DNA of 64,000 bases from Candidatus Aminicenantes bacterium (GTDB lineage: Bacteria; Acidobacteriota; Aminicenantia; Aminicenantales; JAFGBC01). The notes beneath the pieces were generated by a model. The model was given only the letters and a program-made list of their open reading frames with translations. It had not been told where the DNA came from and did no database searches. Below are positions 16,762-31,526 of this stretch, piece by piece (within the stretch, counting starts at the first letter, position 1; every line of letters begins with the position of its first letter). The stretch covers positions 2,816,001 to 2,880,000 of the forward strand of contig OY969696.1 in NCBI GenBank assembly GCA_963702005.1, in the 5' to 3' direction. The position numbers and the translations under genes are program-made.

Positions 16762-18228
16762 ATGATGATCCCCGCCCTCCGTCCCAAGCTCGAAGTCCTG
16801 AGGCCTGAGCTCATCAAGTCCATCATCGACGAGGCCCTGGCCCTGCTCGACAAGCAAGGCATCTTCGTCGAAAACGAAAATGCCTTGGCCCTTTTCCGCG
16901 ACGCCGGCCAGCGCGTTGACGGCGCCGCCCAGAGGGTTCGCCTGTCGGAAAAACTCGTCCGGGACGCGTTGGCCAGCACGCCGTCCGAAATCCGGCTTTA
17001 CGACCGGAGCGGAGATAAAGAATTCCTGGTCGGCCGGGACGAAGTCCATTTCGATCCGGGTTCGACCGCCATCACCATCCTCGACCCCGCGACCGGCCTT
17101 CACCGGAAGCCGGTCACTCCCGACCTCGTCCGCCTGGCCCGGCTGACCGACCTTCTGCCCCATTACCACTTCCAGAGCACGGCCCTTATCGCCGGCGACG
17201 TCCCGGACCTCGTTGCCGACAGCTACCGGCTCTTCTTGGCCCTCCAATACTCGGCCAAACCCGTCGTCACCGGGACGTTTCGGGTCGAGGGCTTCAAACC
17301 CATGCTGGAGATGCTGATGGCCGTCCGGGACAGCGCTCCGGCCTTGGCCGCCAAGCCCCTGGCCATCTTCGACGCCTGCCCCTCCCCTCCCCTCAAATGG
17401 AGCCAGCTGACATCCCAGAGCCTTATCGACGCGGCTCGGGCCGGGCTGCCTTCGGAGCTCATCTCGATGGGCATGACCGGAGCAACCTCGCCCGCGACCA
17501 TCACCGGAACGCTTGTCCAGCACACCGCCGAGAACCTCTGCGGCCTCGTCATCTGCCAGCTGGCCCGGAAGGGGGCCCCGGTCATCTTCGGCGGGTCACC
17601 CTCGAGCTTCGACATGAGGAAGGGAACGACGCCGATGGGGGCCATCGAAACCATGATGATCGACATGGCCTACGCCCAAATCGGAAAAACGCTGGGACTT
17701 CCGACCCATGCCTATATGGGATTGACCGACGCCAAGGTCATCGACGCCCAAGCCGGTCTGGAAGCCGCTCTCGGCGCCGTTCTAGCCGCCCTGGCCGGCA
17801 TCAATGTCGTCTCCGGACCGGGCATGATGAACTTCGAAAGCACCCAGAGCCTGGAAAAACTCGCCGTCGACAACGAGGTCTGCGGGATGGCCTACCGCCT
17901 CGTCGCCGGCATCGCCCAGAGGGACGATCCGATGGCCCTTCCCTTCTTTGAGGCCCTAAGCGCGTCCACCCAGTTCTTGTCTCTCCCCCATACCAGGCAG
18001 TGGTACCGGAAGGAGCACACCCTGCCCGGTCTCATCGACCGGGACACTTACGAAGATTGGGTAGCGTCGGGCCGGAAGACGATGGCCGACCGGGCGGCCG
18101 AGGACGTCCCGAAACGGCTTAAGGAAACGCCCCTAAACCTGGCCGATAAGAACGTCCGAAAGGAGCTCGAACGGATCATGCTCGGCGAGGCCCGAGTGGC
18201 CGGACTGAGCCGGCTGCCCGAGGTCTGA
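16762..18228 (+). CDS. MttB-superfamily corrinoid methyltransferase, non-pyrrolysine
   Basis: SPPLKW, GATSPATITG and GLTDAKVIDAQAG (Leu at the inferred Pyl position); no in-frame UAG. Confidence 0.88.
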   Translation: MMIPALRPKLEVLRPELIKSIIDEALALLDKQGIFVENENALALFRDAGQRVDGAAQRVRLSEKLVRDALASTPSEIRLYDRSGDKEFLVGRDEVHFDPGSTAITILDPATGLHRKPVTPDLVRLARLTDLLPHYHFQSTALIAGDVPDLVADSYRLFLALQYSAKPVVTGTFRVEGFKPMLEMLMAVRDSAPALAAKPLAIFDACPSPPLKWSQLTSQSLIDAARAGLPSELISMGMTGATSPATITGTLVQHTAENLCGLVICQLARKGAPVIFGGSPSSFDMRKGTTPMGAIETMMIDMAYAQIGKTLGLPTHAYMGLTDAKVIDAQAGLEAALGAVLAALAGINVVSGPGMMNFESTQSLEKLAVDNEVCGMAYRLVAGIAQRDDPMALPFFEALSASTQFLSLPHTRQWYRKEHTLPGLIDRDTYEDWVASGRKTMADRAAEDVPKRLKETPLNLADKNVRKELERIMLGEARVAGLSRLPEV

Positions 18229-23534: not shown

Positions 23535-25076
23535 TCAGCCCCGAGCCCTGGTCCCGCCGACGTTGATGCCCCGGATGCGGACCGTGGGCTGGCCGGCCGT
23601 GACCTCGGCCGATTGTCCCTTGCCGCAGGTCCCGGGCCCGAAGTCCAGGTCGTCGGCGACGGCGTCGACGTTCTGGACGATCTCGAGGCAGTTGCCGATC
23701 AGGGTCGCTCCCTTGACCGGATTCGTCTTCTTCCCGTTCTCGATCAGATAGGCCTCGCGGCAGGTGAAATTGAAGACGCCGGTTGTCGGGTCGACGCTCC
23801 CCCCGCTCAAGGCCTGGACGTAAATCCCGCTCTTGGTCGCGGCCAGGATGTCGGCGGCCTTGTCCTTCCCGTTGGCGATGAAGGTGTTCGTCATGCGCGG
23901 GATGGGAAGATAGCGGAAGCTCTCGCGCCGTCCGTTCCCGGTCCGTTCCATGGCGAGCTGCTTGGCCGACAGGACGTCGGTCATGAACCTGACCAGAACG
24001 CCCTTATCGATAAGGACGTTCCGCTGACCGGGCGTCCCCTCGTCGTCCCAGTTCGTCGTCCCCCGGAAGTTGGGGAGTGATCCGTCGTCGATCATGGTGA
24101 AGACGTCGCTGGCGACCTTCTGGCCGAGCTTCCCGGTGAAGGCGCCGATCTTCTTGGCGATGTTGTCGGCCTCGAGCGGATGTCCGACGGCCTCATGGAC
24201 GAGGACGCCTCCCCAGCCGTTCTGCATGATGACGTCCATCTTCCCGGCCGGCGCGTCTTGGGCGTCGAGCATGACGACGGCCTCGCGGGCCGCGGTCCGG
24301 GCGACCCGGTCGGGCGAAACGTCGTCGAACATCTCGAAACCGGAGTGCCGGCTGAGCCGTTCGCGGCCCATGTGCCGGGTGTTGTTCCCCTCGCTCAGGA
24401 CCTGGACGATGAAGAACAGGAGGGGGAGCTCGTCACTCAGGAGGAGCCCCTCGGAGTTGGCGATCGTCCGGCCCCGGATTTCATCGTAGTAGCTGATGGA
24501 GGCCATCTTGATCCGCTTGTCGTAATCGAGGGCGGCCTGGTTGGCGCGCCTCATGACGTCGAGCCGCTTCTCGTCGGCGATTCCGGCCAGGGGGAGCTTG
24601 ACCGTGATATAGATCGGGCGCGAACCCTCCCGGACCGGGACCGGCTTAGCGGCGGCGCTGCCCCGAGCGATGAACGAAGCGACCTCGGCCGCCCGCAGCA
24701 TCGTGTCCTCGCTGACCTCGTCCGTGTAGGCGAAGCCCGTCTTATCCCCAGCGATGACACGGACCCCGGCGCCCTGGCTGATCCCAAACTCGGCGCTCTT
24801 GAACTTGGACTCCTCCATCAGGATGTTCCGGGAAATGCGGTGCTCGATGTAGACGTCGGCGAACTCCCCGCCCTTCTCCAGGGCCTTGGCGACGACCCGG
24901 TCCAGGACGGCCTTGTCGACCGCCAAGCCGGCCGCCGGAAGCGCGCCCGGCCCGGCCTTGCCGAGGAGCTCCTTCATCAAGGCCGGCGTGGCCGCCAGGG
25001 CCAGGCCGCCCTTGACGCTCATCTCCAGGAACTTACGGCGGGGAATGTCCCCGACGAAAAAGTCTCGTCCGCTCAT
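23535..25076 (-). CDS. tldD: TldD metalloprotease with Tat signal
   Basis: HEAVGHPLEAD, PRMTNT and CGKGQ; N-terminal PRRKFL twin-arginine motif. Confidence 0.9.
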   Translation of the reverse strand: MSGRDFFVGDIPRRKFLEMSVKGGLALAATPALMKELLGKAGPGALPAAGLAVDKAVLDRVVAKALEKGGEFADVYIEHRISRNILMEESKFKSAEFGISQGAGVRVIAGDKTGFAYTDEVSEDTMLRAAEVASFIARGSAAAKPVPVREGSRPIYITVKLPLAGIADEKRLDVMRRANQAALDYDKRIKMASISYYDEIRGRTIANSEGLLLSDELPLLFFIVQVLSEGNNTRHMGRERLSRHSGFEMFDDVSPDRVARTAAREAVVMLDAQDAPAGKMDVIMQNGWGGVLVHEAVGHPLEADNIAKKIGAFTGKLGQKVASDVFTMIDDGSLPNFRGTTNWDDEGTPGQRNVLIDKGVLVRFMTDVLSAKQLAMERTGNGRRESFRYLPIPRMTNTFIANGKDKAADILAATKSGIYVQALSGGSVDPTTGVFNFTCREAYLIENGKKTNPVKGATLIGNCLEIVQNVDAVADDLDFGPGTCGKGQSAEVTAGQPTVRIRGINVGGTRARG

Positions 25077-25208
25077 CACGTTCTCCTTTCGTAATCCTTA
25101 AGTTTAGTTGCTTTTATGCTTGAGAGGGAATGATAAACAGGTACAAGGACGGTTTGATAATAGAAGTTTCCTGACCAATTCCGGAAAAAATTCATGAGAT
25201 TTCAGTAA

Positions 25209-25475
25209 GGAAGGGCGAGGAACCGGGCCATGAAGAGGGTCGTCTGAGAGCCGGAGCTTATAGAGATGCTTATGGGAGGAACAGGCGAAGCTGATGGGGT
25301 GGAGAAGGCCGTCGAAGGGTCGAGCGGGCATGGTTCCTCTCTTGAGGAGAGCGAGACCCTGAGTCGGAGCGAAATTGGCTCGCTGGGACAATTTCGCGTC
25401 CTTCGAACCCCATCGGCTGCGCCTGCCTGGGGAAATCGCAGCGTTCCCTCGAATGGCCCGGTCCGAGCCCTTACC
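25209..25475 (+). ncRNA. Putative large structured RNA, family unknown
   Basis: Nested long-range helices with G-U and tandem G-A pairs, in a gene-free gap between tldD and the MBL nuclease (see findings). Confidence 0.55.
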
Positions 25476-25619
25476 CAGGCGCCGAGAAGGATAGCTCGGA
25501 AAGGCTAAACCCTCAAAGGTCGCTGCGACCATTTCCCGATCCATATCAATCGCAAGTCGCCGCAAACCTTTACCTAAACTTAAATAATATTTCCTATATT
25601 TCACCACTTAAATCAACGC

Positions 25620-27032
25620 TTAGTCCAGGCTGAAGGTTGCCCCGGGACCGGGGATGACGACGTTTTGGCTGCCTTCCTTGCGGAGCTCGGCCGCCAGGCT
25701 CTCGAGGACTTCGGCGTCGCCGTGAACCAAGTACAGGCTGCGGAGCGGCTTCCGGAAATGGTTGGCCCAGTCGAGGAGGGCGGGACGGTCGGCGTGAGCG
25801 GAGAAGCCCTGGATCTGCTCGACCCGGGCCCGGACCGGGTAAGCCTGTCCAAAAATCCGGACTTCGTTCGTTCCGTCCATGATGAGGCGCCCCAGCGTTC
25901 CGCGGGCCTGGAATCCGACGAAGAGGATGGTCGATTCGCGGCGGGAAATATTGCGGGCCAGGTGGTGCTTGATCCGGCCGCCCGTGCACATCCCCGAACC
26001 GGCCATGATGACGCAGGAGCCCTTGATGGAGTTGATGGCTTTGGACTCTTCCATGGTTCGGATATACTTAAGGCCCGGGAAGCGGAACGGGTCGCGGCCG
26101 GCCCGGAACAGGGCCTTGGCCTCTTCGTCAAGCTCGTCGCGGTGCCGCTCATAGACGGCCGTGACCTCGACCGCCATCGGACTGTCGAGGAAGGTCAGCA
26201 GGGCCGGGATCCGCTTGGTTTCGAACAGCCGGCTCAGAAAGAACATCAGCTCCTGGGCCCGGTCCACGGCGAAGGTGGGGATGACGATGTTGCCCCCCTT
26301 CTCGACGGTCCGGTTGATGACGTCGGCCAGGAGGTTGTCGATCCGGTCCGGGTCTTCGTGAGCGCGGTCGCCGTAGGTGGATTCCATAACAACGTAGTCC
26401 GCCTCCTGGAAGGACGAGGGATCGCGCAACAGGGGTCTGTGGCTCTGGCCGATGTCTCCGGAAAAGACGATTTTCCTGAAATCCGGCGCGCCCCGGCGGC
26501 TCGTCTCGACCTCGATCATGGCCGATCCCAAGATGTGGCCTGCCTCCCGGAAGGTCGCGCTCAAATCCTTGAACTCGACCGGCTCATCATAGCCGACGGT
26601 CTCGATCAAGGGGACGACCCTCTCGACGTCCTCCGCCGTATAGAGAGGGACCTCAGGAAAGGGCCCCTGACGCCCTTCCTTCAAGTGGCGCTTCTTCTTG
26701 AAGGCGGCGTCTTCCTCGAGGATCCGGGCCGCGTCGTGGAGGACGATCGGGACGATCTCGGCCGAGGCCGGCGTCGTCAGGATCTGGCCCGCGAACCCTT
26801 CCCTGACGAGCTTGGGGAGGAGGCCGCAGTGGTCGAGGTGGGCGTGGGTCAAGAAGACGGCGTCGACAGCCTTGGGATCGAACCGGAACCGGCTCCAGTT
26901 TCTATCTTGGAAAGGCCGCTCTTGATGAAGGCCGCAATCCACCAGGACCCGCGCCGGGCCGGATTCGAGGAGAGAGGAGGAGCCCGTCACCTGTCGGGCC
27001 GCCCCAAAAAAACTTAGATGAGGCTTTTCCAT
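25620..27032 (-). CDS. MBL-fold beta-CASP ribonuclease
   Basis: THAHLDHCG, AGHILGS, MESTYG, FSAHAD and LVHGD. Confidence 0.9.
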   Translation of the reverse strand: MEKPHLSFFGAARQVTGSSSLLESGPARVLVDCGLHQERPFQDRNWSRFRFDPKAVDAVFLTHAHLDHCGLLPKLVREGFAGQILTTPASAEIVPIVLHDAARILEEDAAFKKKRHLKEGRQGPFPEVPLYTAEDVERVVPLIETVGYDEPVEFKDLSATFREAGHILGSAMIEVETSRRGAPDFRKIVFSGDIGQSHRPLLRDPSSFQEADYVVMESTYGDRAHEDPDRIDNLLADVINRTVEKGGNIVIPTFAVDRAQELMFFLSRLFETKRIPALLTFLDSPMAVEVTAVYERHRDELDEEAKALFRAGRDPFRFPGLKYIRTMEESKAINSIKGSCVIMAGSGMCTGGRIKHHLARNISRRESTILFVGFQARGTLGRLIMDGTNEVRIFGQAYPVRARVEQIQGFSAHADRPALLDWANHFRKPLRSLYLVHGDAEVLESLAAELRKEGSQNVVIPGPGATFSLD

Positions 27033-30043: not shown

Positions 30044-30517
30044 TCAACTTACTCCGCCGCTCCTGGAGAGGGCTTCCTCCCATTGGGCGCGACGGGGGAA
30101 GAACATGAATTCGAGGATAAGCGACACGAATAGAAGGATGTAGAAATCCCGGACGAGCCCGGTAACGAAAAAGAGGATGAGCCCCAGGAGGGTGGGAATC
30201 TCGGCCAGGACGTAGGTCAGGACCGAAACCCGCATCAGGCGCATGAGGATTTTAGCGGGTTCCTCCCCCGGCCTGCCCCGAAGCTGGCTCCCTCTTAAGA
30301 ACCGGATGAATATGATGAAGACGACGGCCAGCCCATAGATGAGGTAGCGCAAGGTCTGAACCTGCCCCAAGGGAATCTGGGAAAACCCATGGAACGGCTT
30401 CATCCGGGCGCGCAGGATCTCTACCAAGACTAAGTAGACAAGCAGGTTAGCGAGAATGGCGGCGCCGATGATGACCGTCCGTCGGAAAAGGAGTCTGGAT
30501 TCTTCGACGGGCTGCAC
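30044..30517 (-). CDS. Small membrane protein
   Basis: Four hydrophobic helices; GTG start with SD AAGGAGG. Confidence 0.7.
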   Translation of the reverse strand: MQPVEESRLLFRRTVIIGAAILANLLVYLVLVEILRARMKPFHGFSQIPLGQVQTLRYLIYGLAVVFIIFIRFLRGSQLRGRPGEEPAKILMRLMRVSVLTYVLAEIPTLLGLILFFVTGLVRDFYILLFVSLILEFMFFPRRAQWEEALSRSGGVS

Positions 30518-30704
30518 GGGTCCCTCCTTAGCGGAGATTGTACACGGGCCGATTATAAGCCAAGCGGAAGGGGATGTTCAACAAGAGAGGGGCCATGCCC
30601 GCTCGACCCATCGACGGCCTTCTCCATCCCATCGGCATCGCCTTTCGCTAGAAAACCAGCTCGGTCTCTCATGATGTTTCATTCCGTCTATGGATGCCTT
30701 TAAA

Positions 30705-30777
30705 TGGTCTGACCCAAACTCGGCTTGACAAGTGCTGTCAAGCGAAGTTCAATAATCTCATCTAAATCAAGGAGGGG
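30705..30777 (+). repeat. 73-bp direct repeat, copy 1 (end + promoter + RBS)
   Basis: TGGTCTGACCCAAACTCGGCTTGACAAGTGCTGTCAAGCG...AAGGAGGGG; 4 mismatches to copy 2. Confidence 0.95.
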
Positions 30778-31441: not shown

Positions 31442-31453
31442 ACTATCTTGATG

Positions 31454-31526
31454 TGGTCTGACCAAAACTCGGCTTGATAAGTGCTGTCAAGCGAAGCTCA
31501 ATAATCTCATCAAAATCAAGGAGGGG
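31454..31526 (+). repeat. 73-bp direct repeat, copy 2
   Basis: TGGTCTGACCAAAACTCGGCTTGATAAGTGCTGTCAAGCG...AAGGAGGGG. Confidence 0.95.

Follow-up and report, generated by a model that had tools for sequence, protein, structure and literature searches.

The ERIC/IRU sequences of Enterobacterales and Vibrio are imperfect palindromes of 100-odd nt that lie between genes in either orientation, are highly conserved across genera at sites that are not orthologous, and come in size variants produced by insertion at defined internal positions; we know of no transposase for them. The bcr1 elements of the Bacillus cereus group, the BOX repeats and the Correia elements, also dispersed, measure about 100-160 nt and are predicted to form stable RNA folds, and among repeats of this type some show compensatory changes and some are modular or mosaic; target-site duplications accompany bcr1 and Correia elements. 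Candidatus Aminicenantes are abundant uncultured bacteria of sediments and wetlands, and to our knowledge almost nothing is known of their non-coding DNA; a search of the literature, supplements apart, found nothing on Aminicenantes repeats or non-coding RNAs (ncRNAs).

REP and REPIN sequences are described as non-autonomous extragenic hairpin repeats that persist as within-genome populations; a REPIN consists of two short REPs, and the same REP also lies on either side of the cognate RAYT gene (PMC3116915, PMC3337134). TwoAYGGAY RNA, a structured motif whose function is unknown, occurs tens of times in a genome in association with other repeats, and one Pseudomonas genome has 38 regions (bioRxiv 10.64898/2026.09.22.753630).

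The window analyzed here is a 64,000-nt stretch of a Candidatus Aminicenantes genome (contig OY969696.1, positions 2,816,001 to 2,880,000, assembly GCA_963702005.1). One of its intergenic elements is a nested copy of a previously undescribed, high-copy family that belongs to the structured interspersed intergenic repeats. By kind its units resemble ERIC, bcr1 and BOX, being imperfect palindromes of 100-200 nt, intergenic, multi-copy, found in both orientations and across genera, and at non-orthologous sites. Their likeness to ERIC/IRU, which are likewise palindromic, intergenic and present in both orientations, is one of description, and the Aminicenantes units form a three-way junction whose loops are invariant and can harbor whole copies of one another, whereas ERIC is a simple imperfect hairpin. 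The likeness to bcr1 and Correia elements is also by description, but no target-site duplication was seen with the Aminicenantes units. With REPINs our units share a non-autonomous, extragenic and hairpin-forming nature and the formation of populations within a genome; they differ in being longer and branched, in that the RAYT-like genes lie beside other repeats, and in that Y1 transposases do not track the family. TwoAYGGAY is a curated Rfam family, in contrast to our units, which have no Rfam match and another fold and lineage.

The element between tldD and the beta-CASP gene

Positions 25209-25475 lie within a 540-nt spacer that separates two - strand genes. A first-pass annotation, made from the letters alone, had placed a multi-branched structured RNA here on the + strand, opposite both flanking genes, as is indeed the case, and had listed its nested pairings, all of which are present where they were placed and all of which occur in the RNAfold minimum free energy (MFE) structure. 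The flanking genes and the helices, the latter read from the sequence and the MFE fold, are as follows:

23535-25079, - strand, TldD/PmbA-family gene (tldD), flanking the element
25620-27032, - strand, metallo-beta-lactamase/Beta-Casp/RMMBL gene, flanking the element
25211 / 25467, + strand, helix AAGGGC/GCCCTT
25222 / 25453, + strand, helix ACCGGGCCAT/ATGGCCCGGT
25235 / 25446, + strand, helix GAGGG/CCCTC
CGCCTG at 25420, + strand, helix CAGGCG/CGCCTG
25289 / 25407, + strand, helix AGCTGATGGGGT/ACCCCATCGGCT
25304 / 25400, + strand, helix GAAGG/CCTTC
25317 / 25355, + strand, helix GGGTC/GACCC
25369 / 25389, + strand, helix GCGAAATTG/CAATTTCGC

The 267 nt of the + strand fold at -141.2 kcal/mol, compared with -106.4 +/- 5.4 kcal/mol for dinucleotide shuffles (RNAfold, z -6.43), and none of 200 shuffles folded as well, which bears out the proposed structure; the - strand folds at -117.2 kcal/mol (z -5.40). 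Also upheld was the absence of a known RNA family, given that no Rfam 15 family matched the element at its gathering score and that the five sub-threshold matches, the best with an E-value of 0.79, are noise. The only Rfam 15 matches elsewhere in the window are a tRNA (2741-2825) and PYLIS_3 (17722-17821). Scanning the locus for promoters and terminators returned one weak promoter-like site at 25134-25161, with 0.4 +/- 0.6 expected, and no terminator.

The proposal of a novel structured element outside Rfam thus stands as to structure, which is conserved (see below), but not as to uniqueness. BLAST of the 267 nt against the source genome, a single contig of 4.31 Mb, gave 53 matches, most of them partial; a wider query gave 34 HSPs at about 23 places and nhmmer gave 26 hits. 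A covariance model counts 15 full units in this genome; arm fragments, left-only and right-only alike, are about as numerous. From the alignment of un-nested copies the basic unit in this genome is about 150-175 nt long (about 135-175 nt across the family) and exists in two homologous subtypes, A and B. Units also occur as nested "onions", in which the inner unit lies between host arms that form a palindrome and not a permuted tandem. Examples in the source genome are:

647k, 3009k, 3013k: type A units
794k, 1485k, 1756k, 403k: type B units
880k, 4278k: nested, type-B unit within type-A arms
1755k: nested, type-A unit in type-B arms, inside a type-A right arm
1808k, 2923k, 3009k, 3013k: further nested examples

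The window element is itself such a composite, consisting of a complete inner unit of type B held between the two arms of a gutted type-A unit. Its parts, together with a second family member in the window, are listed below, P1 to P5 being helices supported by covariation:

25209-25257, + strand, outer unit left arm (type A 5' half), ending ...GCCGGAGC, paired with 25427-25475 in the MFE fold
25258-25280, + strand, A+T-rich 23-nt linker TTATAGAGATGCTTATGGGAGGA separating the outer left arm from the inner unit
25272-25434, + strand, inner unit, complete type B with three-way junction, ~160 nt, matched by the covariance model
25281-25300 / 25407-25425, + strand, P1 of the inner unit
25304-25308 / 25400-25404, + strand, P2 of the inner unit
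25317-25321 / 25355-25359, + strand, P3 of the inner unit
25322-25333, + strand, invariant junction GAGCGGGCATGG of the inner unit
25335-25339 / 25344-25348, + strand, P4 of the inner unit
25349, + strand, GAGCGAG of the inner unit
25369-25377 / 25389-25397, + strand, P5 of the inner unit
25379-25388, + strand, P5 loop CTCGCTGGGA of the inner unit
25427-25475, + strand, outer unit right arm, from inside the P5 loop (CTGGGGAAATCGC...) to ...CCGAGCCCTTACC
30447-30654, - strand, second family member, truncated, left arms through GAGCGGGCATGG and part of P4, seen as an inverted repeat and by the covariance model

The inner unit scores higher against the covariance model than any other match from any source (162.3 bits, E 8e-41, model positions 1-171). 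The outer left arm (25214-25257) is 93-95% identical to the 5' halves of complete type-A units at 3013826, 3009876, 647151 and 4194804, and the right arm (25427-25469) resembles the type-A 3' halves at 647044 (93%), 3009769 (93%) and 3013711 (86%). Compared with intact type-A units, the outer unit lacks its interior, namely everything between GGAGC and CCTCG in the P5 loop. Four further composites in the source genome (1808k, 4216k, 1813k and 3957k) carry homologous linkers at the equivalent junction. The second family member gives a weak covariance-model match (29.3 bits) and was also seen as inverted repeat I1, in which 25283-25344 and 30582-30643 are 90% complementary.

Over 24300-26400 we compared the window with contigs from four runs of wetland DNA. 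The contigs stop inside the element and none joins across it, so that no empty-site form was found among them; contigs that run from tldD into the left arm (e.g. 24300-25255) indicate that the element occupies the site in those populations too.

Conserved fold and strand preference

The covariance model rests on 27 units, 15 of them from the source genome and 12 from others, and on a structure set by hand that comprises 49 pairs in helices P1, P2, P2b, P3, P3b, P4 and P5. A long closing stem (P1 and P2) leads to a three-way junction, from which two arms emerge, P2b-P3-P3b-P4 and the P5 hairpin. The invariant motifs, GAGCGGGCAYGG, GAGCG and the 7-nt loop UCGCUGG closed by a C-G pair, are unpaired, and the invariant columns of the seed alignment all fall in unpaired or junction positions: GAGCGGGCA-GG on the 5' side of P4, GAG-G on its 3' side, and C-C-C-GGG in the P5 loop. 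A candidate tertiary pairing sets CUCGCU of the P5 loop against AGCGAG, with a single compensatory case, in G021. A census of P4 loops, in which GNRA and GAA loops were sought, revealed no dominant loop; CGAAG occurs in 19 of 141.

Covariation was assessed against slid controls, in which the pairing partners are shifted by 1-3 columns. Among 69 matches from the loci collected in this work, 82.0% of cells form standard pairs, compared with 35-50% in the slid controls; both sides have changed in 45 of the 49 pairs, and the covariation score is 0.443 as against at most 0.107 for slid partners and 0.151 for shuffles. An independent set of 87 matches, recovered by a pattern scan of metagenome contigs and one viral contig and having no share in the building of the model, spans a G+C content of 0.40 to 0.78. 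Here 86.2% of cells are paired (37-47.5% in slid controls), 48 of the 49 pairs show double changes, and the covariation score is 0.642 against at most 0.123. Alignments fitted to a model favor its structure, a bias that the slid controls share in part only; with that qualification, both the share of paired cells and the covariation score lie above the controls in both sets.

The first-pass annotation had also held that the + strand was favored and had credited G-U wobbles. The preference itself is strict, the model strand being more stable than its complement in 69 of 69 units by a mean of 14.3 +/- 5.4 kcal/mol, but wobbles do not account for it: over the same units GU/UG and AC/CA number 108 and 110. 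An excess of G-U is confined to P1 (65 vs 32) and P4 (8 vs 3), while P2b/P3 leans the opposite way (8 vs 39), probably because some modeled pairs are not real in every subtype. The asymmetry is due mostly to purine-purine mismatches, of which AG and GA together count 254 and the complementary UC and CU 31. Among these mismatches are tandem G.A motifs, in which GGCGAGG faces CCGAGCC where units end and GAA faces GAA where P1 meets P2. Taken together, the asymmetry and the uniform difference in stability mean that the entity under selection is one strand in single-stranded form; RNA and DNA are alike compatible with the data.

Distribution, nesting and turnover

With the covariance model, units were found in 94 of 151 genomes and 46 of 60 genera of the order, and in none of 150 genomes from the rest of the phylum, 11 of them from the same class. 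Within this sample of genomes the family is confined to a single Candidatus Aminicenantes order. BLAST of the element against 41 relatives was positive in 19. Some genera are always positive (g18, 9/9; g3, 8/8; g15, 6/6) and others always negative (g19, 0/16; g21, 0/7; g5, 0/4). The 94 genomes hold more than a thousand matched copies, with at least 18 matches in each of many genomes of the order, and G037 carries at least 27 near-identical units in the stretches examined. Among viral contigs there was one pattern match, on a contig of 362 kb. Eleven unit-bearing loci drawn from three further genomes were also compared with Rfam, and none of their units matched a family.

Both congeners lack a unit at the window site, the beta-CASP gene and tldD being adjacent and separated by a spacer of about 110 nt (G001) or about 66 nt (G002); a named metagenome-assembled genome with an 86% identical TldD has the same short spacer. 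Beside tldD, where the first-pass annotation had proposed to collect homologs, one distant relative, L067 (TldD 74% identical), also carries a unit, upstream of the gene and on the opposite strand; the congeners have none, nor does L020, which keeps the order beta-CASP to tldD. No element was found upstream of tldD in L022, whose region was examined in part, or in L040, both of which have a different upstream gene. The converse situation, a site filled in a congener and empty in the source genome, was met at no fewer than six places (coordinates of the source genome):

1311197, filled in G001, flanks 35 nt apart in the source genome
87376, filled in G001, flanks 63 nt apart in the source genome
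3807466, filled in G001, flanks 16 nt apart in the source genome
1288616, filled in G001, flanks 67 nt apart in the source genome
473175, filled in G002, flanks 23 nt apart in the source genome
2193596, filled in G002, flanks 32 nt apart in the source genome

These comparisons show that species belonging to a single genus differ by gain and loss of copies. The six alignments are ragged; the flanks differ too, the extra DNA often exceeds one unit, and no clean termini can be drawn. No target-site duplication was found at the ends of 15 copies with their flanks or in the six filled-versus-empty pairs, with boundaries so unclean that a short one is possible. Five g15 genomes offered orthologous flanks of only 73-80% identity, too diverged for junctions to be read. 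In G037 an empty-site search was defeated by a flank that is itself a repeat; at 11 further G037 loci, nine had the unit, one had an internally deleted unit and one had none.

Two loci are shared with G001. The type-B unit at 403k, the dprA-side locus, is 93.9% identical between the two genomes (155/165), compared with 78.4% in the adjacent spacer and 86.6% in the neighboring gene, a pattern that, at this one locus, points to individual copies being under constraint. It could instead result from gene conversion between copies, since at the second shared locus (1808k) the P4 hairpin differs outright. There the orthologous unit of G001 lacks the preceding type-A and type-B left arms of the source genome, and has a P4 hairpin of different sequence and compensatory changes in P3.

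The 403k locus bears on nesting as well. Where the source genome and G001 have a type-B unit, G002 has only a type-B left arm, ending ...GAGATGGGC, followed by 12 nt and then by a type-A unit in the opposite orientation, which we take as direct evidence that nesting proceeds by arrival of a unit inside a resident unit, just after GAGCGGGC. Left-arm fragments in nested copies have a common end at the GAGCGGGC motif; the left junctions of type-B hosts, in the source genome and in contigs of related populations, fall at the same point, just after it, and from that junction to the foot of the inserted hairpin the linker measures 12-27 nt. As a target motif GAGCGGGC is uninformative by count, since the 8-mer occurs 623 times in this G+C-rich genome. 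Outside the genus only 5 partial arms adjoin 109 full units, so nesting is mainly a trait of this genus. We considered a small ORF starting at a conserved ATG and rejected it, as the frames differ among copies.

How the units may spread

The genes next to the units are ordinary housekeeping genes. No transposase, reverse transcriptase or recurrent nuclease was found in 89 ORFs around 18 loci of the source genome or in 110 ORFs beside 66 metagenome copies, and no pair of arms flanks a gene in the source genome. A Beta-Casp domain likewise occurs in 0 of the 89 and 0 of the 110 ORFs. The ribonuclease gene beside the window copy is an incidental neighbor, and the copy has no specific functional link to it or to tldD. 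Its sole local effect is likely to be a large hairpin within the spacer. Orientation relative to neighboring genes is random (12, 12, 10 and 10 in the four classes, over 44 loci with two called neighbors), and A+T content over 129 flanks is flat (0.48-0.61 upstream, 0.48-0.58 downstream). Replication-strand bias, judged by GC skew, is absent in the source genome, with about 7-8 units leading and 6-7 lagging (n=15). A tRNA gene lies within about 320 nt of 9 of 169 loci, the unit always being on its 5' side (six co-oriented, three divergent), and this link with tRNA genes is weak.

The source genome has 11 identical IS200-type tnpA genes, three RAYT-like genes, which score 61-79 bits against NF047646 and so fall under its 80-bit cut-off, and one RVT_1 gene; no TnpB zinc ribbon was found in this genome. 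The RAYT-like genes and IS200 copies are flanked by their own unrelated multi-copy repeats, such as CTGGGGACACACG (28+34 copies) and GGGGTCAAACCTACAC (23+24 copies), and none lies within 20 kb of a unit. Y1_Tnp (PF01797) occurs in 126 of the 151 genomes of the order. It is absent from at least 17 unit-bearing genomes, among them G003, a single contig with 7 units, and G022, G193, G204 and G272, with at least 18 each; it is present in every unit-free genome of g19, g21 and g5. RVT_1 (PF00078) occurs in 30 of the 151 and was not found in the high-copy genomes G001, G002, G015, G022 and G037.

As a description it is secure that the element is a structured repeat, dispersed and nested, rather than a unique gene. 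We favor, on balance and with modest confidence, the reading that the units are non-autonomous elements copied in trans by a putative machinery that reads the folded strand. Such copying would take place at the DNA level; the machinery would recognize the junction and the invariant loops of a folded single strand, and it would differ both from Y1 (IS200/RAYT) transposases and from RVT_1 reverse transcriptases. Either strand, when transcribed, would form a very stable hairpin. It is shown that new copies can land in resident ones just after GAGCGGGC, which gave the window its onion of a type-B unit in type-A arms. Several observations count against copying in trans: no target-site duplication, clean boundary or mobilizing enzyme was found, Y1_Tnp and RVT_1 are distributed as described, and replication-strand bias is lacking, if in a small sample. 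The 403k copy has diverged less than its flanks, and a purely selfish element would have no need of such constraint; a five-helix junction with invariant loops is more elaborate than the known substrates of single-stranded-DNA transposases.

Some of these same observations speak for a different reading, that the units are multi-copy structured ncRNA genes or modules kept by selection for a cellular role, for example as a family of regulatory sRNAs, as an RNA that binds proteins or serves as a scaffold, or as a module for processing or stability, their duplication and loss being secondary. It is a tenable minority position: covariation is strong in every helix and the unpaired nucleotides are invariant in genomes of 40-78% G+C, strand preference is strict, the one orthologous copy at 403k is conserved beyond its spacer, and the presence of units does not depend on Y1 transposases or reverse transcriptases. 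The position of units on the 5' side of tRNA genes adds a weak link, and TwoAYGGAY is a precedent for a multi-copy RNA of unknown role. An RNA gene family fits poorly, however, with random orientation toward neighboring genes, with flanks that lack a positional A+T or promoter signal, with the single weak promoter-like site and missing terminator of the window locus, with a patchy distribution that leaves whole genera without units, with sites that are filled or empty from one congener to the next, and with the many truncated or nested copies.

Known routes of mobilization fare worse: a mechanism of the REPIN or IS200 kind is unlikely, and so is that of a retro-element. Movement as single-stranded DNA by a Y1 HUH transposase encoded elsewhere would suit strand-specific hairpins without target duplications in a genome with IS200-type TnpA and RAYT-like genes, and the 12-27 nt linker after GAGCGGGC resembles the end geometry of IS200/IS605; we nevertheless hold it to be quite improbable, given the unrelated repeats around those genes, their distance from the units, the unit-bearing genomes without Y1_Tnp alongside three unit-free genera that always have it, and the absence of replication-strand bias. 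Reverse transcription and re-insertion of an RNA, in the manner of a SINE or retrozyme, would agree with the RNA-like fold, with the common end of left-arm fragments at GAGCGGGC in nested copies and with the one RVT_1 gene, but is more improbable again: RVT_1 is sparse in the order and not found in the five high-copy genomes, left-only and right-only fragments both exist, and host arms surround the inner unit as a palindrome. Of the three readings first offered for the locus, a structured MITE came closest, though the element is no classical MITE. Many dispersed copies exist (the 15 full units and fragments), and there are terminal inverted repeats, the ends being the P1 strands (e.g. GGGCTCGG...CCGAGCCC), yet complementarity spans the whole element and not the termini alone, neither the 15 copies nor the six filled-versus-empty pairs, with their unclean boundaries, reveal a target-site duplication, and no autonomous IS with the same ends appeared, there being no transposase in 199 flanking ORFs. 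For REPIN-RAYT, likewise, none of the three RAYT-like genes is flanked by units of this family and co-occurrence with Y1 transposases over 151 genomes is lacking. Membership in Rfam 15, including 6S, RNase P, SRP, tmRNA, riboswitches and known ribozymes, was not found, and the suggested 6S-like rod falls with it. Least credible of all is a unique ncRNA gene, 6S-like or other, coupled to the beta-CASP ribonuclease or TldD/PmbA genes; it could draw on the position between the two genes, the stable fold and the unit upstream of tldD in L067, but a single-locus gene, as originally put forward, is refuted by the multi-copy status and by the empty sites in both congeners, L020 is empty as well, other copies have no Beta-Casp domain beside them, and there is no 6S match.

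Copying in trans remains the account that we prefer, and the family merits above-average interest because of its size, its strongly supported fold and its missing mobilizer. It is large, its structure is conserved over a wide range of G+C, and it is missing from Rfam. The element breaks assemblies, as contigs of four runs end inside it, and is prone to be mistaken for a locus-specific RNA gene; the covariance model and the alignments (A2, A3) can be used for its annotation. The question it poses is what reads and copies a 150-nt three-way junction in genomes without the usual repeat enzymes. Speculatively, and we think this rather doubtful, the units may represent a new class of self-targeting structured element whose loops and junction are read by a conserved factor of the order and which spreads without a Y1 transposase or RVT_1. 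If true, this would mean either a new way to mobilize small non-coding elements or a large functional RNA family, possibly a ribozyme, that RNA catalogues have missed.

Repeats inserted in and lying beside the units

Other repeats occur both within the units and around them. In three units of the window's own genome (those at 3875k, 4278k and 2923k) a separate palindrome of ~55 nt (GATTTGGGGAC...GTCCCCAAATC) fills the tip of P4, a helix in one arm of the three-way junction. The same palindrome also stands alone in this genome, at 1065890, 2062639, 2064059 and 2068359, and its arm occurs 7+9 times there in total. P4 is either tolerant of insertions or attractive to them.

Within the window, further repeats were seen at the following positions, the direct repeats lying directly beside the truncated unit at 30447-30654 (-):

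25494-25541, short repeat in the element's 3' flank, matched elsewhere in the genome at 859240 (95%) and 2601994 (83%)
30698-30777, first of two 80-nt direct repeats
31447-31526, second 80-nt direct repeat, 91% identical to the first and 749 nt from it

Both direct repeats terminate in the Shine-Dalgarno-like AAGGAGGGG. A 21-nt piece of the element's 3' flank (GACCGTTTCCCGATCCATATC) is reversed relative to tldD in the same-genus genome G001.

In another unit-bearing genome, G037 (loci L118-L135 and L175-L185), most units are housed in a repeated block of ~300 nt, in which conservation of the unit is far above that of the remaining block. A repeat of ~45 nt (TCAGAAGGCTAAATCTTCAATGTCGCTTCAGCCACACCTGAATTTCA), in either orientation, lies 60-70 nt upstream of these units, and a related piece is present downstream of them; TCAGAAGGCTAAATCTTCAATGTCGCTTCAGCCACACCTGAATTTCA is also found standing alone, with 41 matches.

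Genes neighboring the units

A tRNA gene lies at most ~320 nt from a unit in nine of the 169 unit-bearing loci (L148, L151, L107, L195, L232, L235, L217, L238 and L246), a weak enrichment over an expectation that we estimate roughly at ~2.5%. In all nine the unit lies 5' of the tRNA gene, being co-oriented and upstream in six and divergent in three.

TldD/PmbA gene pairs border two of the unit loci of the window's own genome; the second pair (1809168-1812040, L104) adjoins the nested 1808k unit, and at locus L067, of a distant relative, a unit is likewise found upstream of tldD. This recurrence is probably due to chance.

Other genes and repeat systems of the genome

The window also contains an Rfam match (45.4 bits; gathering threshold 38):

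17722-17821 (+), PYLIS_3 (pyrrolysine insertion sequence of mttB)

This match suggests that the genome carries a pyrrolysine-type trimethylamine methyltransferase gene.

The sole RVT_1 gene of the genome (504 aa; locus G000:C1:665197-669231, L308) is followed downstream by an unannotated 504-aa ORF and then by a DUF6414 protein. The locus, which is not close to any unit, may encode a reverse transcriptase of the defence type.

Three RAYT-like Y1 transposase genes (L156-L158) are each surrounded by their own inverted repeats, multi-copy in the genome:

G000:C1:2326423-2327076
G000:C1:713755-714693
G000:C1:3854827-3855579

Among these repeats, CTGGGGACACACG is present in 28+34 copies and GGGGTCAAACCTACAC in 23+24, the latter additionally flanking 11 identical IS200 copies. 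The three genes and their repeats are classical REP/REPIN systems, distinct from the unit family.
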